64,000 bases of DNA from an uncultured bacterium. Lineage in GTDB: Bacteria > Margulisbacteria > WOR-1 > CAVSGV01. The stretch spans positions 256,001 through 320,000 of the forward strand of contig CAVYHE010000003.1 in NCBI GenBank assembly GCA_963768305.1, given 5' to 3'. The position numbers and the translations under genes were made by a program. Numbering within the stretch: the stretch's first letter is position 1; each line of letters begins with the position of its first letter. Shown here in pieces: positions 31,686 to 64,000 of the stretch. The notes below the pieces were generated by a model that saw only the letters and a program-made list of their open reading frames with translations, was not told the origin of the DNA and did not search any database.

Positions 31686-31695
31686 AAAAACCTCA

Positions 31696-41140: not shown

Positions 41141-42673
41141 CTACTTCTTGTCAAGGGCTATCAAAGTTCGCCCCGTCATTTCTTTCGGCTGTTTAATGGA
41201 AAGGAGCTGAAGGATCGTCGGCGCGATGTCGGCCAGTATGCCGTTATCCCTGAGACGAGCCTTGATATCATCTGAAACAATGATGAAAGGGACCCTGTTG
41301 CACGTGTGGGCGGTCCAAGGGCCTTTTGTCTCATAATTGTATTTTTGTTCGGCGTTCCCGTGGTCGGCTGTGATGAGCGTTATTCCGCCCTGTTTTTTTA
41401 CAGCGTCCGCCACTCTTCCAACGCACTTGTTCACTGTCTCCACCGCCTTGATGGTCGCATCCAGCATACCGGAGTGGCCTACCATGTCGCAATTGGCGTA
41501 ATTCATCATTATCACGTCGTATTTTCCGCTTTCGATCTCCTTTATCACGCGGTCTGTGACTTCTGGCGCGCTCATTTCAGGTTTAAGGTCATATGTCGCC
41601 ACTTTCGGGGAAGGAAGAAGTATCCTGTCCTCATTTGGGAACGGTTTTTCGACTCCGCCGTTGAAGAAGAACGTAACATGCGCGTATTTTTCCGTTTCGG
41701 CGATGCGCAGCTGTTTCTTTCCGTTTTTGCTCAAAACATCGGCCAGAATATTTTTCAGTTCCTGCGGAGGGAACGCAACAGGCGCCTTGATCGTCACGTC
41801 ATACTGCGTCAGGCAGACGAAATGGGTTTTCGGATGGATTTTTCTTGTGAAACCGTCAAAGGGATCGTCGGTGAAGCATCTGGTTATTTCCCTCGCCCTG
41901 TCGCCCCTGAAATTGAAAAAGATCACAGAATCATTATCGGATATCGTAGCGCCGCCTTTTATGACGATCGGTTTTATGAACTCGTCGGTTTCTTTCCTGT
42001 CGTACGCGTTCTGCATTGCCTGGATAGGATCAGATCCCTCAACCCCTGCTCCACTTGTCATCGCGTCATACGCCTGCGAAACTCTCTCCCATCTCTTGTC
42101 GCGGTCCATGGCGTAGTATCTTCCGATGATCGTTGCGATCTTCCCGGTGCCAAGTTCTTTCATTTTCTTCTGCAGTTCCTCGATATAACCTTTTCCGCTT
42201 TCGGGCGGCGTGTCCCTTCCGTCCATGAAGCAGTGGACATATACATTATTGATGTTGTTTCGTTTGGCGAAGTCGAGGAGCGCGTAGAGGTGTTTGTTGT
42301 CGCTATGTACGCCGCCGTCGGAGAGAAGTCCCATTATATGAAGGTTCGACTTATTTTTTTTAGCGTTGCCGACAGCGCCGAGGAGGACTTTATTCCTGAA
42401 AAAATCGCCGTCTTTTATCGATTTGGTAATTCTTGTCAATTCCTGATAAACGATGCGGCCCGCGCCGATATTAAGGTGGCCCACTTCAGAGTTGCCCATT
42501 TGGCCTTCCGGCAGGCCGACGGATTCGCCGGAGCATCCGAGCGTTGTGGATGGATATTTTTTCGCGAGGTTATTGACGGTCTGGTCTTTGCAGAGTTTGA
42601 TCGCGTTAAAGTCCGAGCTTTCTCTCACTCCCCAGCCGTCCATTATTATCAATACGAGCGGTTTGTTTGGCAT
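41141..42673 (-). CDS. gpmI: BPG-independent phosphoglycerate mutase
   Basis: MDGWG, QMGNSEVGH, DMVGH, TADHGNAE. Confidence 0.95.
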   Translation of the reverse strand: MPNKPLVLIIMDGWGVRESSDFNAIKLCKDQTVNNLAKKYPSTTLGCSGESVGLPEGQMGNSEVGHLNIGAGRIVYQELTRITKSIKDGDFFRNKVLLGAVGNAKKNKSNLHIMGLLSDGGVHSDNKHLYALLDFAKRNNINNVYVHCFMDGRDTPPESGKGYIEELQKKMKELGTGKIATIIGRYYAMDRDKRWERVSQAYDAMTSGAGVEGSDPIQAMQNAYDRKETDEFIKPIVIKGGATISDNDSVIFFNFRGDRAREITRCFTDDPFDGFTRKIHPKTHFVCLTQYDVTIKAPVAFPPQELKNILADVLSKNGKKQLRIAETEKYAHVTFFFNGGVEKPFPNEDRILLPSPKVATYDLKPEMSAPEVTDRVIKEIESGKYDVIMMNYANCDMVGHSGMLDATIKAVETVNKCVGRVADAVKKQGGITLITADHGNAEQKYNYETKGPWTAHTCNRVPFIIVSDDIKARLRDNGILADIAPTILQLLSIKQPKEMTGRTLIALDKK

Positions 42674-42754
42674 TTGTTAAATGATAGTAGGAAAAATGGA
42701 ATTAGTAAAGCGAGAGATGAGAGATGAGGATTCTTGAAGTCACAAATTGTGACT

Positions 42755-43145
42755 TCAAGTTATCAAAAATCCCATATTATGCTTCCTGGTTGACCGCTCG
42801 ATGGTCAACTTGCGTATATCTCGCACCAATTCGCTGATGTTCGCGTCGTGCTTGAAGACGCGCTTTTCGAGCTGTTCTATCTTATGAGCAAGCGCTTGAT
42901 TGCCGGCTATCATCTGCCTCAGACGGATAAAAGCCCTCATTATCGCGACATTCACATACACGGCTCTTTTGCTACGAAGCACCCCTGACAACATGGCCAC
43001 TCCCTGTTCAGTAAAGGCTAAAGGAAGATATCTGGAGCCGCCCCAACTTGAGGTGTAATTTTTGCACCTCAAGATCTCATTGAATTCTTCCTTGCTCAAC
43101 TGGAACATAAAGTCGTCGGGAAATCGATCGATAGTTCCTTTTTTT
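42755..43145 (-). pseudogene. 5'-truncated ORF6N domain gene
   Basis: (KRN)IDRFPDDFMFQLSKEEF...WGG.RYLP.AFTEQGVAMLSGVLRS; similarity stops near 43145 at CCCTTAT-type low-complexity repeats. Confidence 0.8.
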
Positions 43146-43220
43146 TCTATCCCCTTATCCCTATATTCCCTTATCCCCTACCCCCTGCTTTATGCTACAA
43201 TTCCTCCGAGGTGATGCTTT

Positions 43221-43445
43221 ATGAACAAGGCTCAAACGCTCGTCCTCTGGATCGCAGGTCTTCTGATCACTGGGATCTTTTGCAACACAGGTCTTAATCT
43301 TCTCAGGCATGCGGCAGCGAACAAAGAACTGCTTGAAACGGGATATCCTTTCACGGTTGTTATTGGGACGGCCTGGACCTTCATCGCGCCGATAATAATT
43401 GTAGGAGTATTACTGGCGGTTTCGTTGAAGGGGCATGAGAAATAA
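43221..43445 (+). CDS. Small two-TM hypothetical protein
   Basis: GAGGTG RBS; two hydrophobic segments. Confidence 0.6.
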   Translation: MNKAQTLVLWIAGLLITGIFCNTGLNLLRHAAANKELLETGYPFTVVIGTAWTFIAPIIIVGVLLAVSLKGHEK

Positions 43446-43488
43446 AGAGATCACGATACAACTCAAAAATAAAAGGTGACATTTTCGT

Positions 43489-44121
43489 ATGAGTAATATA
43501 ATTTCATTTTTCAGCTTATTCGTAGCCATTGCTTCATTTTTTAGGGATAAGATTTTTGAGAACTTTAAGCCTGCATTAAAAATCGAAGCACAAAATAGAT
43601 CTCCGGATTGCGTAAAAACCCCCTTTTATACTCCCGATAGAGTCGTGAAAATTGATGGATATCAATTTCGCATAAGAATTATCAATGATAGTAAACAAGA
43701 AGCTACAAGAGTGAGGGTGACGGCAGAAAGGCTTGAGAAAATGGTTAATGGTAGTTTTGTTGCCGATAATAATTTTATCCCCTTATTTTTATTTTGGACC
43801 CATCATAGGACGACGGAAGTAAATATTTATAGTGAAACATATGCTTTTTGTGACTTTGGTATCATATATCACCCGCAAGGCCGCTTCGAAATTTATGGGG
43901 ACGATCCGACGCTACCTACAATATTGGAATTAGATACGACAGTAAAACCTTTCACAAAGAGCAATCTTATTCCACCAGGCAAATACTGGTTGACGATCAA
44001 AGTGTCGGGGTCAAATATTAAGCCTACAATCAAAAAGATTATTATTGATAACAGTGGGAAATGGTTTGACGATGAACGGGAAATGTTAATTCAAGGTACA
44101 ACAATTAAGGTTTTGGATTAG
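43489..44121 (+). CDS. Hypothetical protein, N-terminal TM anchor
   Basis: 210-aa AT-rich ORF with an RBS-like AAGGTG. Confidence 0.7.
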   Translation: MSNIISFFSLFVAIASFFRDKIFENFKPALKIEAQNRSPDCVKTPFYTPDRVVKIDGYQFRIRIINDSKQEATRVRVTAERLEKMVNGSFVADNNFIPLFLFWTHHRTTEVNIYSETYAFCDFGIIYHPQGRFEIYGDDPTLPTILELDTTVKPFTKSNLIPPGKYWLTIKVSGSNIKPTIKKIIIDNSGKWFDDEREMLIQGTTIKVLD

Positions 44122-44164
44122 TATTGCTCGTTTATGTTTTTTGTCTCAACACTCTATACATGCG

Positions 44165-44377
44165 TCATTTCAATCTTTCCCATATTTGTAAAACGAATCC
44201 TAATATAAGCAGAATGATTCCGGGCCAAAATACATACAAATTAATTATAGCAAAAGGGATGTTTATCGTATGCCACAAAAAATGACAGCCGGTTTCATAA
44301 GCCCCTGTGTTTTCAGAAACTGAAAAAGCAATAAATATACTTCCCAAAAAGTTTAAGATTAAACCTACTAAACCCAT
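44165..44377 (-). CDS. Small membrane hypothetical protein
   Basis: Hydrophobic GLILNFLGS...LGFVLQ pattern. Confidence 0.5.
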   Translation of the reverse strand: MGLVGLILNFLGSIFIAFSVSENTGAYETGCHFLWHTINIPFAIINLYVFWPGIILLILGFVLQIWERLK

Positions 44378-44452
44378 TTTATTGATTCGCTTTCTGCGCT
44401 CCCAAATAAATAGTATTCATATTTTGTGATTTCATTTATTGATGAAGTAAAA

Positions 44453-45378
44453 TGGGATTAAAGCCCCCTCCTCGAACTGTCAGCATCATTCTACAGAATA
44501 CAATTCATGGGTGCAAGAAGCTGAATCTGGGCCGTTCAGGATGATCATCAGATACTGTGAACTAACCTGGGAACTTCACAGTATCCCTTTATGCTCGACT
44601 GGAGCACACAGGCACGCACGCACGGGCGCAGGAGGCGCGGCCAGGCGCAAACCAGATTAGATATTTTATTAATTAACACAAGACAGATACATTCAAACAG
44701 TTGATAGACAGATGTTGCTCTTTAGCGTGAGAGAATAGACAGAGGATCAATGACGTTGGATACGAACACAAATGAGAGACAGAAGAACCTAACCCAATGA
44801 GTTGAAGACACGCTGGGAGCTTGAAGTTATTGCCGCTCAACTCCACCAAAGGAGCTTCTGGGATCCCCGAAAAGAAGACGCTACATTGCTGGCCTGCACG
44901 AATAACCATTCGGCTTGTGGCTCTTGCTGAATATGTTGATGACAGCTGCCGGCGCATAGAAAAAGAGCGACGGGTATTCGCAATCGTCATAGATAACCAA
45001 GCTGGTCGGACTGCTCTAACTGGTCGTTTCCAGAGAGGAATTAAGGCTTTGCTTGAACCTCCTCAAGTGATCGTTCGTTGTGTTCCTGTGTTGCCTTCTC
45101 CGTGGTCCCGCCAAAGGAGAATGACCTCTCCTTCGCTCTTCGAGCTACGAAGGGCTGGCAATTAAGGTGTGCTACGCACATTTGAAAGGGAAAGACCATA
45201 ATTCCTGCTCCGCCTTCGGCGGTATTTAACTTCGTGTCTTGCCGCCCGCCAATCCTTCGACAAGCTCAGGACAAGTGCCCGCCAAAAAAGAACCAAAGCT
45301 CCTGCTCCGACTTCGTCGGTATTTGACTTCGTGTTGTGCCGCCGCCCGCCAAACCTCTCCCAAAATGATGGTGGGGGA
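44453..45378 (+). repeat. Long inverted repeat, left copy (LIR-A), non-coding
   Basis: Aligns end to end with the reverse complement of 61048-61967. Confidence 0.95.
44551..44585. other. 35-bp palindromic site with an asymmetric core, in LIR-A
   Basis: GATACTGTGAACTA-ACCTGGG-AACTTCACAGTATC. Confidence 0.8.
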
Positions 45379-45445
45379 AAAACCTGGCACGTCATACTCA
45401 AAAAAAGTGGTGAAAAATGATACTAATTTAAGGCCGAAAAACCAC

Positions 45446-45506
45446 CGGTTATTTCACAGTATCCTATCGGGTATTTCACAGTATCGAGCGGTTAGTTCAC
45501 AGTAAG
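45446..45506 (+). repeat. Three 18-bp direct repeats at 22/21-bp spacing (operator- or iteron-like)
   Basis: CGGTTATTTCACAGTATC (45446), CGGGTATTTCACAGTATC (45468), CGGTTAGTTCACAGTAAG (45489); followed directly by TTGACT-18 bp-CATAAT. Confidence 0.85.
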
Positions 45507-45543
45507 TTGACTTTGTTGGCCACCCAAGACCATAATTCCCCCC

Positions 45544-47016
45544 ATGGCTGAAGAGCTGGAATACTTAACTCTTAATGAGATAAAAGCTTTTCTTAACTCC
45601 ATCGACGATATCCGCGACCGGGCGCTGATAACCCTATTTCTTAACACCGGCCTATTCCTGAACGAAATAACCTCGCTGAAAATTGATTCCGTCGACTGGA
45701 AGAATAAAATTCTGAATGTCCCCGGAAACCGTAAAAGGGCCATTCCTCTCAACGACCAGGTTTTTGATGCGCTTGCCAAATGGTCGAAGGAGCGTCCCTC
45801 GGGCAATATCTCCGAGCTTTTTGTCACAACAAAAGGCGCGCTGAAAGATCTGACCAGCCGCGGCGTAGATTATCTGATTAGAAAATACGCCGATCAAGCA
45901 GGCATCAAAAAAACGGGTCAATCCGCAGATACTTCGCAATACATTCGCAGTCCGGCTTTTCTCCGAAGAACCCTCCGTGGAAAAAGCTTCCGCCATTTTG
46001 GGCATATCCGATCTGGAATCGGTAAATCGCTATATAAGGGCCTCTAAATTGCCGCCGGCCAGGGTAGAGATAACTGAAAATCTTGAGCATATCGATACTC
46101 GCCATCCCCTTGTCAAAGCCGTTTCCAAAATGTTCCCGACAAAACCCAAAGCCGTTAAGCCGACGACCGAAATAAAAGGCCCAATAACTCCCAGCCCCGA
46201 AGAAGTGATCTTCGGAAGGGATAACATAATCGCCGACATAAAAGCCGATATCGCCAAAGGCCAGTCTGTTTTATTGACGGGTCCTCTGGGAATAGGCAAA
46301 ACGCATTTATTGAAGCACATGTTAAAAGTGCTTGGTCCTAATACAATATATATATCATCCCCAACCCCGCTTAAAACCGCCCTGATGCAAATACTCGTAA
46401 AACTTGATCCTGAATGGAATAAGACGCTGAATACAAGAGCTTCAACGAAAGATATAACCGACTATATTGTGAAAGATAAAAGGGGAAAAGCCTCCCGTCC
46501 TGCTTATCGACAATTTAAATAATATCAAGATTTCTGATATTGATCCTGTTTTAAGCTTTTTGAATAACTTCCCCGTACTTGCCGCGGCTGATGAAACAAA
46601 GCCCAAGCTGAAGCAGATATGGTGGCAGCTCAAACAGGTCGCGCTTCCGCCGTTAAATGAAGATGCCTCAAAGGAACTTATCAAATATCTTACGCAGAAC
46701 CTTACTATCAGCGATTATGAAATGCTTGAAACAAGGATATCTGACCCTTTCAAGCGGCCTTCCCATCGCGATCGTAGATATGGTCCGTCAAATAAGTCAT
46801 ATCCGGAAGATTTCAGTTGATGTTATTCGTGATGTTTATCACGAAGCCGGGATTCAATATCGCGACTGGACGATGGTAATAATCTTCATTTACTGGATAG
46901 CCGTCATTTTCAGGTTCCTTGCGCTCGGCACGAAAAGCTATGAGGCGTATTTCCTTGCAGGTTTCGGCGTAACTTTATTGATGATATTAAAAAATGTTAT
47001 GTCAATGTTGAGGTAA
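45544..47016 (+). CDS. Degenerate tyrosine-recombinase catalytic domain + AAA ATPase + C-terminal TM fusion (three apparent frameshifts)
   Basis: RDRAL..LFLNTGL...E, then PQILRNTFA and ILGISD...RY after a shift in the A-run near 45910; Walker A GPLGIGKT, Walker B LLIDN; two terminal hydrophobic helices. Confidence 0.7.
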
Positions 47017-47067
47017 AGGAGGGAGTTAAAAGAATTTAAGGGCTCAAATAATAAGAGGTGATAATAA

Positions 47068-47523
47068 ATGACAAGAAGAGAATTTATTGAAAAATGTTTT
47101 GGCAACAAACTTCAGGCAATCCCTTACAGTGAAGGCGACCATTTTAATGCTTTAGAGGAGGTCGAATCGCTACTTACTAAGCAAGGGCTTATTAATTTAG
47201 ATGAGAATGATATTGAGCAAATAACCAGTACAAGCGACAAGTTAGTGGCGATTTCTGCTGAGGCCCACGGAAAACATCGGTCGCACAGACTTGGTCACAA
47301 AATCCTTTCAAACATACCTGATTTCTTTTGGGATAAGAAACCCACAAATGCATTATTTAATATCACGGGAAGTCCCGATATAACACTAAATGAGGTTAAT
47401 GATGTTGCTGAACACATTTACGATTCAGTGAATCCCCACGCGAATATCATTTTTGGCGCGATTATCGATGAAAATAAAACCGATTACTTAAAAGCCACCG
47501 TGATATTCGGCGGCAAAAAATAG
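47068..47523 (+). CDS. Stand-alone FtsZ C-terminal domain protein
   Basis: GLINLDEND (T7-loop-like), NITGSPDITLNEV, ANIIFGAIIDE, ATVI; no GGGTG GTPase domain. Confidence 0.75.
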   Translation: MTRREFIEKCFGNKLQAIPYSEGDHFNALEEVESLLTKQGLINLDENDIEQITSTSDKLVAISAEAHGKHRSHRLGHKILSNIPDFFWDKKPTNALFNITGSPDITLNEVNDVAEHIYDSVNPHANIIFGAIIDENKTDYLKATVIFGGKK

Positions 47524-48114: not shown

Positions 48115-49451
48115 ATGCTCGCACCCACCCATAGCGTATTCGGCATCTTTTTAACGCTGATATTCCTGGCGGTGTTCGGGATTCAGTGGAGCCTGCATTG
48201 GACGATAATTCTTGTTGCCATTTTTGGCTCGATCGTTCCCGACATTGACCATCCCCGTTCCGTCATAGGCAAGCTCTTCCCCTATATCTCCATCCCCTTA
48301 GAGCGCAGATACGGCCATAGAACGATAACCCATTCCTTCATCGGCTGGATAATTTCAACTGTCATTTTTGCTTTTCTTGTCTTGCTTGTAGTTTTGATAT
48401 TTAAATTTGTTTCGATTCTCGGACTTCCGTTTCGGGTTTTATCTTGGGCGGAGTCGAGGGCTTGGCTCCCCGCTGGATAGCCGCATTTTCAATATCTTAT
48501 TTTTCCCACCTGCTTTTGGACATGTTCAACAAGCGCGGCAGCCAGATGTTCTGGCCTAACCTCAGTCGTGATGTTATCCCGAAAAATCCAAAATACCGCC
48601 CTGAATCGGGCTCAAGCGTTGAGCCTTTTATCTTCATTATTCTTTTCATATTGATGCTTTTTGCTTTCCCGATCTCCAAATACGGGATAGCAAGTTCGCT
48701 TCGCTGGCTTATGGCTACTCCCGGCTCCGCCATGCAAGAATTCCAGTCCCTCAAGACCCATTCCTATGTTGATTTCAACGGCTATTACACGGAAACAAAA
48801 GAGCCGCTTGAAGGGACCGCAGAAATACTTGATGTAGACAAAGGACGGCTGGTAGTACTTTATAAGACCAAGATTTACACGTTAAGTGACGCTCTAGCCG
48901 CCGATATAACCGCCTCCCATGTCCGGCTGAAAAGGACGGATATTCCAATTAATATCACGCAGAAGATATTTAAGGATGAAAACCGCGATGAGTTGCTTGC
49001 TCAAATTCCTGCAGGCGCGCTTGTTTCGGGAACAGTTAAGCTCCCGGAAGGAATGGAGCTTCAATTCCCCGCCTTCCCCGGCTCTTATAAGCCAATGGAT
49101 CAGAAAAGCGGGAACCTGATCCTTTTATTCGCCTCAAAAGACCAAATTGAGAAGCTTGCCCTCACGGAAACCTTCGATCTGCTAAAAAGAAAGGACCAGG
49201 CCGACCTCGCCCAGCTGTACGCGCAGGCGGATAAGCTCAAAAGCCAGATATCGGAAGCGGAAACTGGCGGCGGACTAACTCCTTTGGGCCAGGAGCTTAT
49301 GATGAACAAGGATGACATCCAAAAGCAAAAAGCCCAGCTTGCCGATTTGAAAGGCCAGCTTGATGAAATAAATGTTAAAATTGAAGAGCTTCAATTGAAG
49401 ATAAAGGCCAGAAAGTTCGTTTTTTCAGGAGAGGTTTATTTAAGGCAATAA
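48115..49451 (+). CDS. YdjM-like membrane metal-dependent hydrolase with long C-terminal domain and coiled coil; frameshift near 48450
   Basis: M...TH, PDIDH, GHRTITHS, SHLLLDMF; heptad-rich C-terminus. Confidence 0.75.
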
Positions 49452-49462
49452 GGAGGCCTGAT

Positions 49463-49994
49463 ATGAGAAAATTAGTCGTTTATCTTGTAATAATGAGTTT
49501 ATTGTCCCCGCTTATCGGCTCTATTGCTTATGCTTTTGAGTATACCCTCGCCCCAAATGATACTCTTGAAGATCAAATTAATGCCAAAAGGACATGGATA
49601 CAAAGCAAACTATCGCTCCGGATGGCACAATTTCGCTTCCCTTCCTCGGAAGGGTCCAGCCTCAGGGCAAAACGCTCAGTGAATTTCAAACCTATTTAAC
49701 AACCGAACTTGCCAAATATGTGAACAAGCCTCAGCTTGTCGTTTATCTTAACGCCAAGATCGATATATGTCGTTCAGCATAATCTCAAGACGAATCTTTC
49801 AGAGGTAAGGAAGCTAAATCCATTGACAGAAGCTAAAGCATTATGCTGGCGAGGATTACACAAAAGAGATCAAATATGGCGATGTTATAACCGTCGATGT
49901 CGGCATTCAGCCTGATTGGTGGGAAACTAACTGGTACAAGGTCATATCCGCAACGGCTGTGCTCGTAGGAATAGATGCGGCATTAAAGAAATAG
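49463..49994 (+). CDS. Polysaccharide-export (Wza/Poly_export) domain protein, frameshifts
   Basis: Signal peptide, YTLAPNDTL, IAPDGTISLPFLGRV..QGKTLSE, YVNKPQLVV; C-terminal WWETNWYK hydrophobic tail. Confidence 0.65.
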
Positions 49995-50890: not shown

Positions 50891-51463
50891 ATGAGAAAGG
50901 CCAAAAGAATAAAAACCAATACCACAAGCTCAACCATACGAGAGAAGCTTCAAAGTCTTTCAGAAGACGATCTTAGGGTGTCCATAATCATTCCATTACT
51001 ATATGCACTAGGATGCACCGAAGTAAGAGATAATTGTGGCCCTGATGAGAAAGGTAAAGATATTATTTATAGTACTCCTCACTTATTGGGAGCTAATATA
51101 TATGGTGCGGTAATATTAAAAAATGATCGCAACCTCGGATTAGGTAAGATGGACAATTTGCGTTCACAAGCTCTTCGTGCCTTGAATGCATTCGGAAATC
51201 CCAGAGATCCTCGTATTGAAACGAAAGTGCATGAATTAATTTTTGTTACCTCATTTGACATTACAAGTGACGTTAGAGATTTCTTAGTGAAGAATTGTGG
51301 CAGTAATTTTCCAAATATGCATTTTGTTGACGGCGTCAGACTTGAGCTTTTAATAAGAAAAATAATTGATTTGTTCAAGAAACTCACTGGCAGAACATAT
51401 GTCTTCGATATTACCTCCTTTGCGGGAATGTGCGATAAAGTTAGGGAATGTAATTCGGAATAA
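50891..51463 (+). CDS. Restriction-endonuclease-like (Mrr-type) protein
   Basis: E..L...IIPLL.ALG...GPDEKGKDII...AV.LK, FVDG..L. Confidence 0.6.
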   Translation: MRKAKRIKTNTTSSTIREKLQSLSEDDLRVSIIIPLLYALGCTEVRDNCGPDEKGKDIIYSTPHLLGANIYGAVILKNDRNLGLGKMDNLRSQALRALNAFGNPRDPRIETKVHELIFVTSFDITSDVRDFLVKNCGSNFPNMHFVDGVRLELLIRKIIDLFKKLTGRTYVFDITSFAGMCDKVRECNSE

Positions 51464-51466
51464 AAT

Positions 51467-54400
51467 ATGAGTAAACACGGGCAAAACAATCAAAAAGGAG
51501 TATTCGCCCAAAATTGGGCTGCTCTGTCATTGTTTCTCCAATTCTATAAAGATCCGAAGTTTTCGTACATTCAACTTGAACCAAACACTTCGGAAGATTT
51601 TGATCTCGTCTTTAATGATGGGAAAAAGATTGTTTGCGAAACAAAATACAGGATAAAGAAGTTCAATTATGCAGATTTAAAGCTTTTACTTTCAAAGATA
51701 TTGGACCGGAAATCGATATCAGAGCAGGATGAAATATTAATAGTTTGTCGATCTGTTAATGAAACCTTAGCTTCGGATGTCAAAAATATCAGATTCTTTA
51801 ATCGTTTAGAAGAGAAATTCCTAGAGAAGAATTTTAATAAGCAAATGATAGGATTGATTCCAAGGGTTAGTTTTTGGGTTATTAATAAATCGTTACATAA
51901 GGACATTAATTTACCATTAATATCACAAGCAATAAATCTATGGCTTCCCCAACAAGACCTGAAGAAATTTACCGACCATATTATGCAAGATAAAATAATG
52001 CGATTGTCGACGCAAGGAAGAGCGTATAGCCGAAATGATTTTAATAATGAAATCAACAATCTAAATGCATATGTCTTGCAAAGCAGCGATAAGTTCAATA
52101 AAAGGTTAACACGAAAAGAGAAACAATTCAAAATGTTGGAAGACGATGTAAACAGGAACAAAGGGATTAAGTGGGGAACGGCCTCATCATCCGCCATTTC
52201 TGCTCAATGGGATTTAATGTCTTTTGTTTTAACAAAATTAAGGAAGAGAAACGATCTTGATCTCAAGAAATGGGATGATTTGTGGCAACTCAAAAGTGCT
52301 TTTCAGTTTATTTATACCGTTTTCGATATCTTTAAAAATAATATGGGGACTGAACAAAATATGACATATATCCTTGGATATATTCAAAGAGATATCAAGG
52401 GAATACGTGGTTTCTATGGCCATTCGGACTTCTTTAATCATGGAGTTGTTGAGCTTGTGACAAAGATAATTGATGCCCCAAGCGGGCATAAATATCTGAA
52501 AGAAGCATTTGCCATTGTTAAATATCTTATTAATTTCAATAAAGATGAATATTTCTATCTTAAAGATCGCGACCAGGATCGGGGCCAGTGGGAAAAGGAA
52601 GAAATATGTAAGTTAATAACGAAGATATATAAAATTGCCCCCCCTGAGATTAAGGAATCTGTTTTCCAGCTAATTACATCGGGATTTAACCTCACGGAAG
52701 ACGAAGGTGAATTTAGCCATTATGCGCCAAGAGAAGCTTTCGAAATTATCAGGGAGTGGTTAAATGAAGATTTTGTTAATAGAATCACTCCGCTAGTAAA
52801 TATAATTGTAGATCAATATAAAAGGTTTTATAAGAAGTTTGGGAAAAATATTGAATTTAAAGGCTGGGAGCTTATGGGCGGTGGAGTCGGAATCTGGGAG
52901 GGGAATTATCGTGTTTCAGATCGTCATTTTATTGAATATATCTTGTCACCAGCTATCAGAAAATATTATGAATCAAATAAAGCTGCCGGTTGGCAATTAA
53001 TACTAGATAAGTTTATTAGTAAGACAGCACAAGTTAGTTCTCACCAACCTGATTTCTTAAATAGAGCCGTTTTCGATATTGTATGCGAAAGATATGCAGA
53101 AGGAGATGAAAATTCTAATCGCCAAGCTTTCAAGATTCTTAAAGAGTTCATTCTTTCCCCCAAAGGGATTCCACATAAATCCGAACTAATCTATCAGAAC
53201 ATAGATCGCCCAACAATGTCTGACGAAAAGAAATGGAAGCTGGTTAAGATTATGACCGATAAATATGACATTCCTGCCAATCCTTTTATTGAGCCAATAG
53301 TTGCTGGACTAGTAAAGAAAGGGCATCCCAAAGCCAAACAGTTATTAATAGGGTGGTTTATGAACCCGAAATTCTATCCTCGATTCCCTTTTGATGGCAG
53401 ATATATCTCTACAATTAAGGGATTAATTGAAACAAACTTAGATTTATCAATTGATTTATTTAAAATCATAATGCGGAGTGAATATATTAAAACGGCAAAA
53501 TCAGAGCATTATGATGTTTATGATGTTGCAAACATATTATTTGAGATATTGAAAAGAGATTATGTGCAAGGTTTATCCATTATTCGAATGTTGGAATCCG
53601 AGAAGGCATTGAGCATCGATCAACAGATTATCTACACTTATAGCTTATGCAATTATCGTGGGAATGAAGACTCAGATGATTTAAATCTACTTATTAAAGT
53701 GTATGCCGATATTGTTGATCCATTTCTGACAAGGATGCATGATGATATTAATTCTATTAACCATGTATTGACTTTTGATAATAGCAGAGAAGCATTAATA
53801 CAGTTTGCCTCAAGGTTGGCTGCTAAGGGCAAAATCCATGAGGCATTAAGAATAGTTAAAGTCTTTTTAGATGATACCGATCCATATCTACCTTCTAACG
53901 CCCCAGTGGGTTATAAAATTGAATATAATGAACACCAAAGAATCGAAAGAGGAGAAGCGCCACTCACAATTACATCTGTGAGAGGATGGTGTGCGTGGAC
54001 TTTGATGAGATGTTCGGTTTTGTCTGGAAGAGAATACATCCCAATGGTAATTGAATTTACAAAGAAGTTGATTGAAGACAATAACTATTATGTTGTTCAT
54101 TTGGCATGTAATGCATTGGCTCACCTAGCTAGAAACCGTCTGACAGTATTGCCAAAGAATAGTGATATTATGTTCTTTAACGATGATAAGCGAAAAGCTC
54201 TGGAAATGGCAAAAGATGTCGAAAAAATTGCTTTTTCACTCCTAGATAGGTTTGTTGGCTGGCCAACTCCAGTTCAAAAGGCACTTATTAAAGATGTAAT
54301 ATATGTATTTGATAACATTACTCAGCTGAACGAATCAGATGCTACAAAATTAGTTACCAAATTAATAGGCTTGCCGAAGGAGGCCGTTGCAGAATCTGCC

Positions 54401-55096
54401 CCATTATTAATATTCTTTGCTGAAACGAGAAGAGATTGTTATGCAAAATGGAACACATATTATCCAGGATTATATGATGATCTTGGACCTGATAAATATA
54501 ACTCAGACATTTTCAAGAAGATTCTTACTGACACGATTAAATCCTTGATGAAGGATAATCCCAAAAATTGCTTTCGATTTGCCTCCACTTTTGAACACAT
54601 GTTGCGTCATGATGTCGAAAGAAAAGCCGACGCCGAGCAATCTACAAAACTGGGACTGAAATATTTTAGACTTTTGATGGAGCCTTACTCTCATTCAATT
54701 TATAACATTATCTTTCAGGTTATTCAAGATAGGATGAAAAATCCGGATAAATATTTAGATGAATGGTTTTTATTGTTCATAGAATGCTTAAATCTCGAAA
54801 ACAGATACTATGATAATGCGGTTAAAATGGGGAATCTTGAAAAGGTATTTTGGTTTCCTTCTTTCTATCATTCAGATATATTAGAATTAATCTATAAAGG
54901 AATGGGCCAAGATAAATTTATGAGGGCTGCAAAGATATTCTTTAATTTTCCAAAAGGAATGCAACTAGAAGAATCTTCAAAACTTGTTAATATAATTAAA
55001 GAATTATCAAAATCAGATAAAGAAGCGCAAAGGATCATTAAAACTCTAATCAAAAACAATCCTGGTAAATATTGGGATTTAAAAGAGAAGAAGTAA
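51467..55096 (+). CDS. 1209-aa protein: N-terminal Cap4/DUF4297-like nuclease plus long alpha-helical region
   Basis: G..N.KG..AQ...E...EDFDL...ETK at the N-terminus; no Walker A motif seen; intact AT-rich ORF. Confidence 0.65.
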   Translation: MSKHGQNNQKGVFAQNWAALSLFLQFYKDPKFSYIQLEPNTSEDFDLVFNDGKKIVCETKYRIKKFNYADLKLLLSKILDRKSISEQDEILIVCRSVNETLASDVKNIRFFNRLEEKFLEKNFNKQMIGLIPRVSFWVINKSLHKDINLPLISQAINLWLPQQDLKKFTDHIMQDKIMRLSTQGRAYSRNDFNNEINNLNAYVLQSSDKFNKRLTRKEKQFKMLEDDVNRNKGIKWGTASSSAISAQWDLMSFVLTKLRKRNDLDLKKWDDLWQLKSAFQFIYTVFDIFKNNMGTEQNMTYILGYIQRDIKGIRGFYGHSDFFNHGVVELVTKIIDAPSGHKYLKEAFAIVKYLINFNKDEYFYLKDRDQDRGQWEKEEICKLITKIYKIAPPEIKESVFQLITSGFNLTEDEGEFSHYAPREAFEIIREWLNEDFVNRITPLVNIIVDQYKRFYKKFGKNIEFKGWELMGGGVGIWEGNYRVSDRHFIEYILSPAIRKYYESNKAAGWQLILDKFISKTAQVSSHQPDFLNRAVFDIVCERYAEGDENSNRQAFKILKEFILSPKGIPHKSELIYQNIDRPTMSDEKKWKLVKIMTDKYDIPANPFIEPIVAGLVKKGHPKAKQLLIGWFMNPKFYPRFPFDGRYISTIKGLIETNLDLSIDLFKIIMRSEYIKTAKSEHYDVYDVANILFEILKRDYVQGLSIIRMLESEKALSIDQQIIYTYSLCNYRGNEDSDDLNLLIKVYADIVDPFLTRMHDDINSINHVLTFDNSREALIQFASRLAAKGKIHEALRIVKVFLDDTDPYLPSNAPVGYKIEYNEHQRIERGEAPLTITSVRGWCAWTLMRCSVLSGREYIPMVIEFTKKLIEDNNYYVVHLACNALAHLARNRLTVLPKNSDIMFFNDDKRKALEMAKDVEKIAFSLLDRFVGWPTPVQKALIKDVIYVFDNITQLNESDATKLVTKLIGLPKEAVAESAPLLIFFAETRRDCYAKWNTYYPGLYDDLGPDKYNSDIFKKILTDTIKSLMKDNPKNCFRFASTFEHMLRHDVERKADAEQSTKLGLKYFRLLMEPYSHSIYNIIFQVIQDRMKNPDKYLDEWFLLFIECLNLENRYYDNAVKMGNLEKVFWFPSFYHSDILELIYKGMGQDKFMRAAKIFFNFPKGMQLEESSKLVNIIKELSKSDKEAQRIIKTLIKNNPGKYWDLKEKK

Positions 55097-55138: not shown

Positions 55139-58100
55139 TTATTTCCTAAGAAAATCAATCTCATCGATCTCTTTCATGATTCTGTATGTTTCTGTCAGGG
55201 CAACAATCATTTTCTGATAATGTTCAATATCTTCATTTGATAGTTCCCGGCCTTTACGGTCCTTAAGCCATTTTTGTGCGGGCTGATAACCGCCGATGTA
55301 AAAGTTCCACGCAATTTCCGGCACTTTTCCAAAATATTGCTCTGCATTAATGTATATCTTGCCATCTTTATAGGTTACCTTTTCAACAGTATCTGAGCCG
55401 GAAGCGGGATATGTAGTAATATATTTATCCACTTTAGGAGATTCAAGCAGATGTAGTTCCCGCAACTCTGTCCCAAGTTTTACTAACTTTTTGAATGTTT
55501 TTGTGTCTTTCGGATATGGCACACGAGGAAAATCTATTTTCAAGAATTCTTTATACTTATTACGGTATCTAGGCGAATACAGAACAGCATAAATATAATC
55601 ATAAATATCTTCCGGATTTGTTTGGCCGATTATACTTTCTATTTTAATGGTAATTTCTTTGTTAAGGTTTGATACTCTTTCATCCCCTACAGGGTAAAGA
55701 TAAAGTGGAAAAACATATGTTTGATCACTAGCAGCATGAATATCGGCAATAGATTTAGAAACATATGCCCTATCAAAAGGTTGATTGGCCGGCATTGAAC
55801 GCGAAGAGAGTAAGGTGATATTATCTCTGCCAACAACATTCACATTTGTTTTTTCTCTTGGATATGCAATAAAGCCTTTTGAATTTCCACTATATGCTGT
55901 GTACCGCACATCAAAAGGACGATAAAGTATTTGTTCAATACTATACTTCTTGCTCAAATCCTCTTTTGCCCATTCGACTTTCCAATCTCGCCCATCTTCT
56001 GGCAATTGGTATTTACTTCTTATTTCTAAATCAGACAATGTTTGGAAATCATCAATTACTTTTTTAATGTCCTTTTTTGAAAATTGCACAGTAGTATCAT
56101 CGCGTTTCGTTTGAATGCCAGAATTGTATTCGTGAAATATTTCAGTTAAAGAAACCCCGTTTTTATATTGCTCTTCTAGCCCAAAATCCTTAGGAACAAA
56201 GAAATAATAAGGATCGTTATATTCAATGTTTTTCCATTTCACCTTTTCTATTTCGGTTTCACTGAGTATTTCATATTTCGCTTCCCGGCTGCCATATAAC
56301 TCTGAATGATAAACGACTCCTAGTCCCGTTTTATTTTCGCTTTTGCGGACAAATATCGAAATAGCCACTCCTTGTTGTATATCAAATACATTTTTATCTT
56401 CTTTATTCAGCTCTTTCTTTCTTGAACTCCCATGAAGATCAAGCACATATATCTTTTCAAAGGTTTCAAGCAAATGCTTCCTCATTTGGCGATGTGTAAT
56501 ACCATCCAAGAAAGAGTTATTAGTAATCATTGCAACAATGCCAGTTTTGTTTTTTTCAATAAAATGCTCTGCAAGTCGAATAAATTTAATATAATCATCA
56601 TCCAAGTTTATCTTTTTTTCGCCAAGACCTTTTTTGTAATCATCTAGTTTAGATAATATCCATGCCCCTTTATTCTTTGATTTTACATTGTAAGGTGGAT
56701 TACCCATGACCACCATAATCGGAGTTTCATTTTTAATCATATTCTGCCTGCTTTGGCCTCTTCTGCAATGCTTTCTGCCAAACCAAAAGCAAATCATAGC
56801 TTGTTGGTTTGCGCCTTCCTCAAGTGAATTAGTTAAATAAATTCCAAGACGATTATTAAACATTCTAAAATCCGATAATTTAAGTGCAATACTTAATTTA
56901 AGATGAGCGATAGTATATGGAGTCATCATTAATTCAAAGCCATGTAGACGCGGCAAAAGGTCATTATGTACATATGCTGGCCAGCTGCCCATCTTGGCCC
57001 TGTTCATTTGAGATATTCATATATGTTCCTGAATAGTTTCACTAATAAATGTCCCTGTGCCGACTGCCGGATCAAGAATTTGCACACGATGTTTCCCATT
57101 CGGTAGTTTTGATGCATCAGCAAGCCCATCTCGAAGCTGAAATCTTTTGCAAAATATGATCAACAGCATCGAACAATAAAATCGAACAACCGGCAATGGT
57201 GTATAAAACGCCCCCATTTTCTTATCGAAGTTCAGGATCATATTCTTTTAAAAAGTCCTCGTAAAAATGAATCACAGGATCTGGTGCATTCTTGTTTACC
57301 CACATAATCATCCCTATAAGTACTTCTATTAGTTATTTGAGTTTGCATGATGAAACAGATATCACAATTCATCAACGATAAACTTAAGCGCTTATCAAAA
57401 TCGGCCCCGGCGATATGATCAAAAAAATGTCTTAAAAATGGGTTAGATGCGGGAATTAAATCTCTTGCGCTTCTGACGTGAAAAAGTATCAGGGGTTTCA
57501 TCGTAATATCTTGCAACAAATAAGCCATAGACTAGAGTTTGGGCATACATATCGGCAAAAGCATTCCTGAGTCAGTCGTGAACAAGAGCTTTTTTATCGT
57601 TTCATATACACGCAATATCTCTGTATTTTTTTTGAATCTAAATCTGAAGAAAGATAATGCCTAATATTGTCCCTTATTCTTTGAGCCTTACCTCCCATGA
57701 TCTTTGCAAGGTGCTCACCTGACTTGATTGGCTCTTTTTGTGATTGTGTAAAGTCGATAAGGGTTTTCGCGACATGTTCATAATTTTCCGGTAAAGGTGC
57801 AATTGAACGTGTCTTAAGGTCATATTCTGCTATTTTTATTGGTTCTTCATAACGTTCTCCATTCCTATAAAACCTGAAATTCAAGATAATCCGTAAGAAC
57901 TAAATTCGTATAGCCATAATATCTTGCCATTTGCTCAGATTTTTCAACTTTATCTAATGGAACACCAATATCTTTTGCTTCAATATAGAGAATAGGGACA
58001 CTATTGTTGATTACGACAAAATCCGGTTTATTCCCTTCTGCTGCTCTTTCATCGTGGCCTATGCGTTGAACCTTTATCGTCTCAAATATTCCGTTTAACA

Positions 58101-58209
58101 ATATTTCAAAATCGGTACGGTAGCCCATCTCGCTTGTTTCTGTGTGGGTAAATTTAGAGGCAACAGACTTTAGATATTTGGACATTAAATCTTTTGTATT
58201 TTCTGCCAT
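55139..58209 (-). CDS. Type IIG / type ISP-like R-M enzyme (REase + N6-MTase + specificity domain), multiple frameshifts
   Basis: KPDF...YIEAK, GAFYTP, LDPAVGTGTF, GNPPY, YRPFD.R, IGGYQPAQKWLKDRK. Confidence 0.8.
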
Positions 58210-58724
58210 TGCTTTGAATTATACGCCCATAAGAAAAGAGAGTAAAGATTAGAAGTTCTTGCTCCCAGCCTTTTCTGTTTTGAATTTTATCCGTCGCTTT
58301 CTGTTGAAAACCACAAAACAGTGTTAATGAAATCGACGGCATCTTCAAGCGAAAACCCCAATTCCATGAGGAATTCGATTTTTCCCATCATTGTTATCAC
58401 CTTTGATTAGTATTATTTTGCTCCCCAGCCTTTCCAGTATAGCATTTTACCGCCTTTTCCCTGTAAAGAGCGCTCACGTTAGGACTTCGTATAAAGCTCT
58501 CTGTCCCGAAAAAATCCTCATCCTTGCGGATTTTTTCGGGGATTAGTTCGCGCTCTCCTCCAGTCGCCCGCCTCCGGCGAGGCTCCTTCCGGCCCTCCGC
58601 TCGTTGCGCTCTCTCGCCCATATATTAGCTTTAGGTAGGCTCAATCGCTCCACTCGCTTCGGGTGACAGGGGCGGTAAAATGCTGTTCCTTCCTATGTTT
58701 TCATTTCATAGGGAGGTGGTTTTC

Positions 58725-59257: not shown

Positions 59258-59421
59258 GAATTTGCAGAGTGTGCGGTTCATTCCTCGTTCCTTGCAACGA
59301 AGGAATAGATCATATCGTCTTCTATCATCCTATCCTTCATAGGCATGTTTATATCTGTCAGACCTGTCTTACAGAGATTCAGAATATCCTCGAGTACGGC
59401 TTCCTCGCTCCCTGCGCTTAA
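59254..59421 (+). CDS. Small zinc-finger protein
   Basis: AAGGAGGT RBS; CRVC...CQTC; ATGA overlap with the upstream gene. Confidence 0.65.
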   Translation: MRICRVCGSFLVPCNEGIDHIVFYHPILHRHVYICQTCLTEIQNILEYGFLAPCA

Positions 59422-61047: not shown

Positions 61048-61967
61048 TCCCCCACCATCATTTTGGGAGAGGTTTGGCGGGCGGCGGCACAACACGAAGA
61101 CAAATACCGCCGAAGGCGGAGCAGGAGCTTTGGTTCTTTTTTAGCGGGCTTTACCCTGAACTTGTCGAAGGATTGGCGGGCGGCAAGACACGAAATTAAA
61201 TACCGCCGAAGGCGGAGCAGGAATTATGGTCTTTCCCTTTCAAATGTGCGTAGCACACCTTGATTGCCAGCCCTTCATAGCTCGAAAAGCGAAGGAGAGG
61301 TCATTCTCCTTTGGCGAGATTACGGAGAAGGCAACACAGGAACACAACAAACGATCACTTGAGGAGTTTCAAGCAAAGCCTTAATTCCTCTCTGGAAACA
61401 ACCAATTAGAGCAGTCCGACTAGCTTGGTTATCTATGACAATTGCGAATACCCATCGCTCTTTTTCTTGCGCTGGCAATGGTCATCAACATATTGAGCAA
61501 GAGCCACAAGCTGAATGGTTATCATGCAGGTTAGAAATTAGCGTCTTCTTTTCAAGGATCTCAAGAGCTTCTTTGGTGAGTTGAGTGGTAATAGCTTCAA
61601 GCTCCCAGCGTATCTTCAACTCATTGGGTTAGGTTCCTCTGTCTCACATTTGTATTCATATCCAATGTCATTGATCCTTCGTCTTTCTTTCACGCTAAAG
61701 AGCAACATCTGTCTATCAACTGTTTGAATGTATCTGTCTTGTGTTAATTAATAAAATATCTAATCTGGTTTGCGCCTGGCCGCGCCTGCTGCGCCCGTGC
61801 GTGCGTGCCTGTGTGCTCCAGTCGAGCATAAAGGGATACTGTGAAGTTCCCAGGTTAGTTCACAGTATCTGATGATCATCCTGAACGGCCCAGATTCAGC
61901 TTCTTGCACCCATGAATTGTATTCTGTAGAATGATGCTGACAGTTCGAGGAGGGGGCTTTAATCCCA
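61048..61967 (-). repeat. Long inverted repeat, right copy (LIR-B)
   Basis: Reverse complement of 44453-45378; the 35-bp palindrome is at 61835-61869. Confidence 0.95.
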
Positions 61968-62836: not shown

Positions 62837-62864
62837 AAATGAAATTATATCACCCACTTGAAGC

Positions 62865-62919: not shown

Positions 62920-64000
62920 ATGAATAAAATGAAAATTGGCATCTATACCCGCGTTTCCACCGATGGACAGGCCGAAGTGGAGTTCAACTCCTGCGAGGCT
63001 CAGGAAGCCAAGATAAAAGCCTTTATCTCCAGCCAGGACAATATGGAGATATATAAAACATATTCTGACCAGGGTTACAGCGGAGCCGACACTAATCGCC
63101 CCGCCCTTATGGATTTGCTAACGGATATTCGGCAAGGCAGCATAAACTCTGTTATTGCTTATAAGATCGACCGGCTTACAAGGTCGCCGAAGGATTTCTA
63201 TCAGCTTATCGAAGTATTCGAACAGCATGATGTCAGCTTCATATCGGTAACTGAGAGGTTCGATACCTCTACGCCGTCAGGTCGTCTCCTCAGAAATATA
63301 ATGCTTACTTTCGCGCAGTTCGAGCGCGAGCTTATAAGCGAAAGGATAAGGGATAAAATGCTCGAACGCGCGAAAAAAGGGCTCTGGAATTCTGGTATTA
63401 CCCCGCTCGGCTATGGCAGAGAAAATAAGAAACTGATCATCAACGCCAATGAAACTAAGATAGTAAAAACCATCTATGATACCTATTCTAAAACCGGATC
63501 GATGGCTGCTGTATACCATAAGCTAAAAGACCAGGGAATTAGGGGAAGGAACGGCAAGATTTTTCCAAATGTAACATTATCCACAATTTTGAGAAATAGG
63601 CTTTATACCGGCAAGATAACTCATCGCGGCCAAACATATCAGGGCATCCATGAACCGATCATTTCAGAAGAGCTTTTCAGCAAAGTTCAATTGCTTCACA
63701 AGGAAAAGGTTAAAAAGGCGAAGGTTTACAACTATTCCCTTTTCACCGGGCTTGTGAACTGTAAAGAATGCGGTTCAAAAATGACTTTTGTTTTCACTAA
63801 CAAAAGCAGGAAGCAGCCCGGTCCCAAACTGAGGTATTATTATTATCGCTGTACCAGCATTTCAAAAAGGGATTTTTCTGTTTGTTCCACCAGACAGGTG
63901 AGCATGGATCGGCTTGACGATTTTGTCATAGAAAATCTCTCAAGGATCGCCGCCGATCCTAATTATGTCGACAGTTTGATTTTCAGGAACAACCACCCGG
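62920..64000 (+). CDS. Large serine recombinase, truncated by the window end (absent from the ORF track)
   Basis: IYTRVSTDGQ, D.GYSG...RP, KIDRLTRS, FAQFERELISER, later C..CGS.M...YYRC zinc ribbon. Confidence 0.92.
   Translation, partial: MNKMKIGIYTRVSTDGQAEVEFNSCEAQEAKIKAFISSQDNMEIYKTYSDQGYSGADTNRPALMDLLTDIRQGSINSVIAYKIDRLTRSPKDFYQLIEVFEQHDVSFISVTERFDTSTPSGRLLRNIMLTFAQFERELISERIRDKMLERAKKGLWNSGITPLGYGRENKKLIINANETKIVKTIYDTYSKTGSMAAVYHKLKDQGIRGRNGKIFPNVTLSTILRNRLYTGKITHRGQTYQGIHEPIISEELFSKVQLLHKEKVKKAKVYNYSLFTGLVNCKECGSKMTFVFTNKSRKQPGPKLRYYYYRCTSISKRDFSVCSTRQVSMDRLDDFVIENLSRIAADPNYVDSLIFRNNHP

Follow-up and report, generated by a model that had tools for sequence, protein, structure and literature searches.

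The 64,000-nucleotide stretch analysed here (hereafter the window; contig CAVYHE010000003.1 of assembly GCA_963768305.1, from an uncultured WOR-1 bacterium) carries on its forward strand, at 45544..47016, a fusion gene of ~490 codons in which a tyrosine-recombinase catalytic-domain fold is joined to an AAA+ P-loop domain and a C-terminal membrane hairpin. In the assembled sequence the gene appears as four forward-strand open reading frames (ORFs) in frames 1, 2, 0 and 1 that tile 45544-47016, and three-frame translation and orthologue alignment join them, once three extra bases are skipped, into one protein of ~490 residues with the order recombinase-like domain, linker, AAA+ domain and membrane hairpin. 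We conclude that the gene most likely encodes a member of an uncharacterised inner-membrane protein family. Downstream lie a YdjM-type gene and variable cargo, the whole being enclosed by a long inverted repeat.

The recombinase-like domain (residues ~1-170, 45544..46055, +) crosses the first frameshift, since the two halves of the Pfam profile Phage_integrase fall on consecutive pieces, positions 2-124 of 172 on the first (E 1.9e-15, 57.5 bits vs a cut-off of 27.1) and positions 129-169 on the second (E 0.028, below the cut-off), where P-loop families follow. The match is unbroken in the orthologue P0001 (489 residues, 87% identical to the middle piece of the window gene), residues 7-168 of which correspond to positions 2-170 of PF00589 (E 5.5e-23, 82 bits). 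An N-terminal core-binding (SAM-like) domain is missing, as had been noted in the preliminary description, since in-frame stop codons lie just upstream of the ATG and the profile match begins at residue 7; likewise, in a profile search against Protein Data Bank (PDB) sequences, query residues 4-180 matched residues 101-276 of the XerA chain 4a8e (E 1.9e-45), corresponding to its catalytic domain only, and XerA residues 1-100 had no counterpart. The active-site set R-K-H-R-H/W plus Tyr is not complete, and only the second Arg and the Tyr remain in the window gene and its clade. A motif scan of the forward strand located box I as TGLFLNE (45646-45666, Arg to Phe), box II as PQILRNTF (45923-45946, first His to Gln, Arg kept, second His to Asn), the LGH motif as LGISD (45998-46012, His to Ile) and the retained Tyr in VNRYI (46022-46036), whereas the position of the catalytic Lys aligned to R/K in the PDB profile alignment, an uncertain assignment.

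The AAA+ domain with its lid spans 46202..46837 (+), as delimited by Pfam on P0001, Foldseek and column statistics, and P0001 matches AAA_22 (5.2e-7, 30.5 bits vs a cut-off of 27) as well as AAA_16. It contains a Walker A motif GPLGIGKT (46280-46303) and a Walker B motif VLLIDNL (46497-46517), in which the Asp is followed by Asn, and reads GLPIAIV (46753-46776) where a sensor-2 G-x-P-R would be expected. The hairpin (46867..47010, +) consists of two hydrophobic helices at 46867-46929 and 46951-47010, with Kyte-Doolittle 19-residue means of up to 2.38 and 1.71, connected by a loop of ~7 residues; residues R456 and G472 are near-invariant, and the protein terminates 1-2 residues past the second helix, so that it has no periplasmic domain behind the membrane segments. 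An AlphaFold2 model of the orthologue from genome G004, built from a 113-sequence alignment (predicted local distance difference test score, pLDDT, 89.5; predicted template modelling score 0.72), places a disordered linker at residues 170-222 and terminal helices at 442-462 and 465-488. Foldseek matched its N-terminal domain to XerA 5hxy (E 3e-9, ~180 columns) and its middle part to AAA+ structures with a lid, namely the RFC small subunit 2chg (TMt 0.62), RuvBL, RuvB and NLR NTPases. Pfam, the PDB profile search and AlphaFold2/Foldseek thus agree on XerA-like and AAA+ folds, and all the motifs and residue losses that the preliminary description had read from the letters alone, including the Walker motifs and the two transmembrane segments behind the recombinase domain, were recovered.

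A single reading frame had been proposed on the premise of three indels. Alignment of the window gene, at the DNA level, with its two closest intact orthologues, L003 (genome G004) and L004 (genome G001), bore this out, being gap-free over the gene except for exactly three columns in which the window alone carries an extra base: one in an A7 run (45908..45914, frame 1 to 2), one near 46475 in GAAAGATAAAAGGGG (46470..46480, frame 2 to 0) and one near 46739 in GGATATC (46735..46742, frame 0 to 1), the last at a non-homopolymer site. In the orthologue register no stop appears in 489 codons, and the ratio of nonsynonymous to synonymous substitution rates (dN/dS) was 0.086 vs L003 and 0.084 vs L004, compared with 0.060 between L003 and L004; by part, it amounted to 0.10 and 0.07 in the recombinase-like domain, 0.09 in the ATPase and 0.04 in the hairpin. 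Public contigs of relatives, taken from four metagenome runs of two studies, omit one base at every one of the three sites that they cover: contigs of three runs do so at 45906-45910, among them one of 255 bases that is 97% identical with only 8 other differences, the single bridging contig does so at 46475, and contigs of two runs do so at 46739 or 46741.

The same kind of error was found in genes unrelated to the fusion. A Pfam search of the 81 window ORFs showed HisRS, PurQ, transketolase, MurB, the YdjM-type gene and a Type ISP gene to be split across frames, MurB over two of them, and HisRS, PurQ and MurB are single-copy in this 1.53-Mb assembly. Three-way alignment with G004 and G001 revealed four window-only +1 insertions in HisRS (4262, 4358, 5086 and 5161) within 1.3 kb and one in PurQ at 17625; transketolase has one uncompensated +1 insertion at 30228, and all of these lie at non-homopolymer sites, as does the third insertion of the fusion gene. 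Since a HisRS broken four times is incompatible with life, the assembly must contain a systematic insertion error, and the three extra bases of the fusion gene are probably assembly errors in a gene that, judging from these alignments, is most likely intact in the organism. Programmed frameshifting was considered and rejected, because intact orthologues need no shift and essential genes bear the same insertions. As a separate observation, ~415 bp of the N-terminal region of transketolase are tandemly doubled in the window (30440-31000 vs 30990-31763, 93-94% protein identity); G004 and G001 contain one copy of this region, so that the window duplicate is either an assembly artefact or a recent duplication.

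Strong matches to the fusion protein were detected in 13 of 40 related genomes at 19 places, five of these 13 genomes containing two or three copies. All 19 are unbroken open frames of 405-549 codons without stops, indicating that the frameshifts do not part the domains in nature. A word-indexed protein search retrieved 174 proteins at E<=1e-5, and the 120 listed were 434-570 residues long and all contained PF00589; the named entries among them were either 'tyrosine-type recombinase/integrase' proteins from Candidatus Margulisiibacteriota, WOR-1 or Saganbacteria, or JGI entries called 'EcfA2'. An exhaustive search of 50%-identity representatives returned 13,292 proteins at E<=1e-3, most of which were ordinary integrases or P-loop proteins, and the number fell to 522 at 1e-10 and 51 at 1e-30, while in a phage collection none of the 62 matching records covered 80% of the query, that is, no full-length relative was present there.

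The state of the active site across the family was counted in 187 full-length members of 440-620 residues. The box I Arg position is occupied by Phe in 115 and Arg in 52 of them, the first His position of box II by Gln in 91 and His in 60, the position following the box II Arg by Asn in 117 and His in 51, and the LGH His position by Ile in 116 and His in 47, whereas the box II Arg (184 of 187) and the catalytic Tyr (179 of 187) are nearly always kept. A complete R..HxxRH..H..Y set was found in 45 members, loss of all four residues in 116 and a mixed state in 26. The Phe/Gln/Asn/Ile combination is shared by homologues at 40-90% identity, Margulisiibacteriota proteins of 485-500 residues that also share the fusion, and substitutions common to close homologues exclude a merely decaying copy, the outcome that would have undone the earlier interpretation. 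Of the 142 non-canonical sequences, 137 group together in a FastTree phylogeny, in a single clade without any canonical member (support 0.89), with four changes in total under parsimony. Loss of the catalytic residues thus reads, from the alignment and the tree, as a fixed and selected trait of the clade, and the three-part architecture appears to predate that loss, having been in place when the recombinase was apparently still active. The first Arg and the His residues of tyrosine recombinases are required for cleavage, and their replacement by Phe, Gln, Asn and Ile predicts a domain no longer able to cleave DNA.

Canonical members share no more than 22-30% identity with the window's clade. 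Among them are proteins from metagenome-assembled genomes (MAGs) of Latescibacterota and, according to our own alignment, 'site-specific integrase' genes of Haliscomenobacter hydrossis plasmids (pHALHY01/02) and of the Spirosoma taeanense plasmid pTS. These relatives resemble the window protein in architecture, length (489-520 residues), hairpin motifs and possession of a YdjM-type neighbour, but differ in keeping R..HxxRH..H..Y and, more often, a D-D Walker B motif and a G-N-P-R sensor motif, both of which are present in many of them. Of the whole set of 187, 178 retain the Walker A Lys; the Walker B Asp is followed by Asn in 126 and by Asp in 27, and the sensor-2 position is Leu in 140 and Arg in 23, the window's clade reading GLPIAIV or GLPLAIV. 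Another 17 relatives of 288-350 residues have only AAA-type Pfam hits and match the ATPase and hairpin part of the query. The relative P0181 carries a winged-helix helix-turn-helix (HTH) domain in the slot of the recombinase domain; no other comparative observation hints directly at a DNA-binding role of the N-terminal slot.

Comparison with characterised systems places the fusion protein beside several of them without making it a member of any. With XerA, XerC and XerD it shares the catalytic-domain fold (profile E 1.9e-45 for 4a8e, 1.3e-41 for 5hxy and 1.2e-35 for 1a0p) and the box II Arg and Tyr. Unlike them, it is missing a core-binding domain as well as the Arg of box I, the two His residues of box II and the His of box III, continues into an AAA+ domain with a membrane hairpin behind it, and has no adjacent dif-like site so far as tested; its scores also stay under the NCBIfam equivalog cut-offs for XerA_Arch (107.7 vs 220), XerC (73.7 vs 335) and XerD (70.2 vs 330). 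The ExeA/GspA and XrtA/PEP-CTERM ATPases (TIGR03015) are similar in having an AAA_22-type P-loop domain at the membrane and in standing beside Poly_export-type genes, but differ from the fusion protein, which lacks their periplasmic peptidoglycan-binding or tetratricopeptide-repeat (TPR) part, carries a recombinase domain instead and is anchored by a C-terminal hairpin; P0001 gave no TIGR03015 match at E<=1e-3. The sole paralogue in the window's genome at the level of the P-loop, L002:787-2208 (G000:C8:8682-8867), is a 474-residue membrane protein with TPR, zinc ribbon and AAA_22 that does match TIGR03015 (3.8e-20). Selection on a recombinase fold after loss of its active site is also known from domesticated Crypton-derived vertebrate genes and from short streptococcal XerD-like proteins, which belong to other lineages and have lost the Tyr or are soluble; no fusion to an AAA+ domain and a membrane anchor is known among them.

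The region in front of the fusion gene contains a set of repeats that appears to be linked to the protein. Three direct copies of a ~17-bp unit (GGTTAnTTCACAGTAtC), spaced 22 and 21 bp, occupy 45445-45510 and are followed by the best promoter-like site of the region, TTGACT-18-CATAAT at 45507-45536 (scan 10/12), which ends 8 bp before the ATG; 9-mer counts and a promoter scan delimit the whole arrangement to 45445..45536 (+). The 9-mer TTCACAGTA occurs 7 times in the window vs 0.17 expected, a count reached in 0 of 100 shuffles; all 7 copies lie at the promoter of the fusion gene or in the two arms of the inverted repeat, and the rest of the genome contains just 5 more. Two copies in each arm form a palindrome, GATACTGTGAA-N13-TTCACAGTATC, with arms of 11 bp and a spacer of 13 bp, placed ~100 bp from the outer edge, at 44551-44585 on the left and ~61835-61869 on the right. 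Promoter triplet and arm palindrome occur together in all four elements of family f1. In Latescibacterota paralogues the equivalent place is taken by other repeats, either GTTTTGTTTGC twice, 21 bp apart, or GGTTTTGTCCG twice, 21 bp apart, and two Latescibacterota loci have a palindrome GATGTAGACC-N12-GGTCTACATC with 10-bp arms and a 12-bp spacer. Such a conserved layout, whose sequence changes along with the protein, is what would be expected of a cognate binding site.

The arms of the inverted repeat were mapped at 44453..45378 (left, 926 bp) and 61048..61967 (right, 93.8% complementary to the left arm), bounding a segment of 15.7 kb, with the start of the fusion gene 166 bp inward of the left arm. 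They are non-coding and GC-rich and contain hairpin-forming direct repeats (e.g. 61083-61134 and 61179-61230). Searches with Rfam (E<=0.1, 42500-47500) and ARAGORN (whole window) returned no match and no gene, respectively, and hence the 1.1-kb non-coding stretch upstream of the fusion gene is not a known RNA gene. A long inverted repeat with its left arm ending ~170-290 bp before the fusion gene was present in seven of nine elements: besides the window's own (G000; arm 926 bp, 93.8%, span ~17.5 kb), these are G001 (641 bp, 92.5%, ~15 kb), G004a (1292 bp, 100%, 40.7 kb), G004b (921 bp, 99.1%, ~18.5 kb), G009 (394 bp, 98.2%, ~16 kb), G012 (503 bp, 89.5%, ~34 kb) and G016 (587 bp, 94.0%, ~38 kb). 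None was seen in the short Latescibacterota contigs. The chromosomal flanks differ between elements, and the cargo varies from one to another, comprising Type ISP, MmeI, GmrSD, AbiE, Schlafen/AlbA, papain-like protease, radical-SAM and two-component system genes.

Gene order within the elements, established with hidden Markov models (HMMs) built from orthologues and run over six-frame translations, follows a common plan: fusion gene, YdjM-type gene, small Poly_export-like gene, variable cargo, DprA-like gene, right arm, and then an HTH gene with a large serine recombinase. The YdjM-type gene (48115..49451, +; frameshifted, with the Pfam YdjM match split over two ORFs) encodes a membrane metal-hydrolase domain with a C-terminal extension of beta-rich and coiled-coil character, and its His and Asp metal ligands are invariant in the alignment. 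It lies downstream of the fusion gene in nine of ten Margulisiibacteriota elements, G015 being the exception, and in all three Latescibacterota loci with downstream sequence, where an RND/HlyD-type periplasmic adaptor (TIGR01730, 1.4e-35) either forms part of the YdjM-type protein or comes after it. A 'metal-dependent hydrolase' gene of the same kind adjoins the homologues on the Spirosoma and Haliscomenobacter plasmids and also lies near an ATPase-only form on Nitrosococcus oceani plasmid A. The Poly_export-like gene (Wza N-terminal type; 49385..49991, +, found by orthologue HMM and broken in four frames), whose orthologues match PF02563 and TIGR03027 (8.9e-14), occurs in nine of ten Margulisiibacteriota elements, and the DprA-like gene (DNA_processg_A with weak PsyrA/ShosA similarity; 58630-59260, three small indels) in seven of ten, near the right arm. 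The large serine recombinase (62920..63999, +, running past the window end; Pfam Resolvase, Recombinase and Zn_ribbon_recom) stands just outside the right arm, divergent from the HTH gene at 62642-62920. It was found in six of ten elements, the other four loci ending too early or having none within 60 kb; in the window, G004a, G012 and G016 it adjoins the right arm, and in G004b it lies close by.

Several further features of these elements deserve mention in their own right. In G004a, G016 and G012 another inverted repeat, 150-170 bp long and 99-100% identical (L037:2805-2957 / 4582-4734; L030:271-422 / 2210-2360; equivalent place in L028), flanks the large serine recombinase gene; its inner copy abuts the right arm on the outside, and its outer copy overlaps the 3' end of the recombinase gene. 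Between the fusion and YdjM-type genes lies a variable slot, taken in other elements by a PDC-S31-like, Bro-N or 23S_rRNA_IVP gene and in the window by a 151-residue ORF (47068-47523) whose match to the FtsZ C-terminal domain (PF12327, 5.4e-15) is confined to the final 57 positions of that domain. Within the cargo, neither the 1209-residue ORF at 51467-55096 nor the 190-residue ORF preceding it (50891-51463) has a Pfam or PADLOC match, and the Type ISP gene (Eco57I methylase plus Type_ISP_C; minus strand, 55142-58621) is fragmented into at least six ORF pieces, its counterpart in the G004 island being intact with 1028 residues. The cargo of G016 (L029:856-3158) and G012 includes two adjacent canonical tyrosine recombinase genes with SAM-like N-domains, one with HNH_repeat, which may represent a nested mobile element. 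The interval from the housekeeping genes to the left arm contains an ORF6N (KilA-C/antirepressor-type) fragment at 42758-43108 and several small unknown ORFs. The repeat may not mark the start of the mobile region, which could begin before it.

Taken together, these data lead us to propose a non-cutting, site-specific DNA-binding ATP switch that is anchored in the membrane, acts with the YdjM-type protein and leaves breakage to a serine recombinase, a reading to which we assign an even chance of being correct. The likely targets of the recombinase-fold domain would be the 17-bp units (GGTTAnTTCACAGTATC), which stand in triplicate at the promoter of the fusion gene and as an inverted pair in either repeat arm. 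With its Walker A Lys kept, a D-N Walker B and no sensor-2 Arg, the AAA+ domain would act not as a fast motor but as an assembly switch that binds ATP, and the C-terminal hairpin would anchor the protein in the membrane, where it could work with the YdjM-type hydrolase and its periplasmic extension. In this way the protein might hold or regulate its own element, island or plasmid, at the membrane, autoregulate its operon and mark the repeat arms, the breakage of DNA being left to the adjacent large serine recombinase. The preliminary description had envisaged a recombinase fold reused as a membrane-tethered DNA-binding module; of this, the degenerate fold, the AAA+ fusion and the hairpin were found as described, and we infer a sequence-specific DNA-binding function for the N-terminal domain from the cognate repeats near the gene, the purifying selection on the domain and the winged-helix swap in P0181.

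Not all the observations fit this proposal equally well, and some speak against it. The repeat units of G009, G012, G016 and G022 are only loosely similar, as judged by eye, and the 13-bp spacer of the palindrome departs from the 6-8 bp of classical tyrosine-recombinase core sites. The repeats could also be bound by another protein, e.g. the large serine recombinase or the HTH protein. Two of the nine elements, G015 and G022 (contig 1), have no long inverted repeat within 60 kb. A complex prediction for residues 215-489 with the YdjM-type partner scored 0.47, with the best control at 0.00, the runs agreeing in at least 98% of contacts and the partner reaching a pLDDT of at least 75; of 157 solved complexes 116 reach the mark applied, as do 2 of 215 mismatched pairs, but scores of 0.60 or under include only 18 of those 157 plus both passing mismatches, so that contact between the two proteins is supported weakly.

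Among the alternatives, the one that survives best is a defence or abortive-infection module, in which an AAA_16/STAND-like NTPase would sense foreign DNA or recombination intermediates and switch on the YdjM-type protein as effector. The ATPase does match AAA_16, nSTAND and NB-ARC-type profiles, the metal-ligand residues of YdjM are invariant, and the neighbours include Type ISP, MmeI, GmrSD, AbiE, Schlafen/AlbA and DprA-like (PsyrA/ShosA-like) genes; moreover, the copy on the Nitrosococcus plasmid adjoins an Abi gene, a GIY-YIG nuclease with a helicase, and a toxin-antitoxin pair. However, PADLOC 2.0 assigned the protein to no defence family, giving a weak mad8 P-loop match (2.5e-5, residues 226-266) and none for the partner or the relative P0179, and the two-gene module is a constant backbone at a fixed end of the island, in which the defence genes are the variable cargo. 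The repeats at its own promoter likewise suggest a self-directed rather than a foreign DNA target, and overall we consider a defence module unlikely.

A replication-initiator-like or partition-like protein, which would bind iteron-like repeats of 21-22 bp and melt or pair DNA at the membrane, appears improbable. DnaA and Orc1/Cdc6 also combine an AAA+ module with a sequence-specific DNA-binding domain and have repeated sites next to their own genes; nevertheless, the likeness is one of functional analogy with weak profile similarity (ORC-CDC6-like 0.018), and the fusion protein differs in being membrane-anchored and in having a putative DNA-binding part that is N-terminal and of recombinase fold. 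The three direct repeats at 22- and 21-bp spacing beside the gene, the inverted pairs in the arms, weak ORC-CDC6-like, ATPase_2 and IstB-type similarity and the occurrence of full-length homologues on plasmids, one of them two genes from a replication initiation protein on pHALHY01, could be accommodated by such a role. Nonetheless, that replication initiator is a separate gene annotated on pHALHY01 itself, most copies of the fusion gene lie in chromosomal islands next to a serine recombinase, and the window's clade has a D-N Walker B and has lost the sensor-2 Arg. No AT-rich unwinding element was seen either, although no search aimed at one was made.

Decay of the gene itself was also weighed, namely that the frameshifts are real and that the window gene is a recently inactivated pseudogene in a decaying island. 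Three shifts fall within 1.47 kb, the density of frameshifts in the island exceeds that of the preceding 44 kb, and four compared island genes carry ~8 uncompensated small indels in addition to the Type ISP gene in its at least six pieces; broken island genes include the Poly_export-like gene in its four frames, the DprA-like gene with its three indels and the YdjM-type gene, whose 23-bp insertion is unlike a read error. It should also be considered that the best public run matches just 0.06 of sampled words and that none carries the source stretch. Even so, like +1 insertions are found in HisRS (four), PurQ and transketolase, the gene has no substitution-derived stop and a dN/dS of 0.085, and the 97%-identical public contig lacks insertion 1, just as all contigs at sites 2 and 3 lack the extra bases, which makes inactivation quite improbable. 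Least probable of all is that the protein remains a recombinase or invertase that flips or moves the repeat-bounded segment by means of its kept Arg and Tyr (184 and 179 of 187) and substitute residues, for although the palindromic sites of the two arms are inverted relative to each other and the catalytically complete relatives resemble catalytic-domain-only invertases (NF007370, 3e-12 for P0179), four of six canonical positions are replaced clade-wide, two of them by the hydrophobic residues Phe and Ile, the first Arg and the His residues so lost are those needed for cleavage, and the right arm has a complete large serine recombinase gene as its neighbour in the window, G004a, G012 and G016, with one close by in G004b.

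Beyond the membrane-anchored DNA-binding switch proposed above, a bolder generalisation could be entertained, which we regard as speculative and more doubtful than that proposal itself. The fusion protein and its YdjM-type partner would constitute a new, phylum-spanning two-gene DNA-handling machine, serving as backbone of plasmids and of an undescribed type of island with 15-41 kb of swappable defence cargo, inverted repeats of 0.4-1.3 kb and a serine recombinase at its flank, and in Margulisiibacteriota it would have become a 'dead recombinase' tether of DNA to the membrane that still recognises the old sites. A literature search returned no description of a tyrosine recombinase-AAA-membrane fusion, of its pairing with YdjM or of a defence island with a serine recombinase and inverted repeats, and the main text of PMC8138268, a paper on the classification of tyrosine recombinases, contains none of the words ATPase, AAA, fused or inactive. 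The system thus consists of known kinds of domain in an undescribed combination, together with a clade-wide loss of catalysis.

Our results have practical as well as biological consequences. Apparent pseudogenes of this genome should not be trusted without polishing, since +1 insertion errors make false ones, and pipelines that count the fusion gene as an integrase over-call mobile elements. The family itself is unstudied despite having hundreds of members, which databases name only 'tyrosine-type recombinase/integrase' or, wrongly, 'EcfA2', and the catalytically complete versions on plasmids of cultured Bacteroidota allow active and dead forms to be compared experimentally. In a phylum about which little is known, the islands enclosed by inverted repeats, whose restriction, Abi and toxin-antitoxin genes are exchangeable, may represent a new means of carrying defence genes. 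If the proposed role is true, the fusion protein would provide a natural example of a DNA cutting and joining fold that is kept by strong selection for DNA recognition alone, wired to an ATP switch and a membrane anchor.

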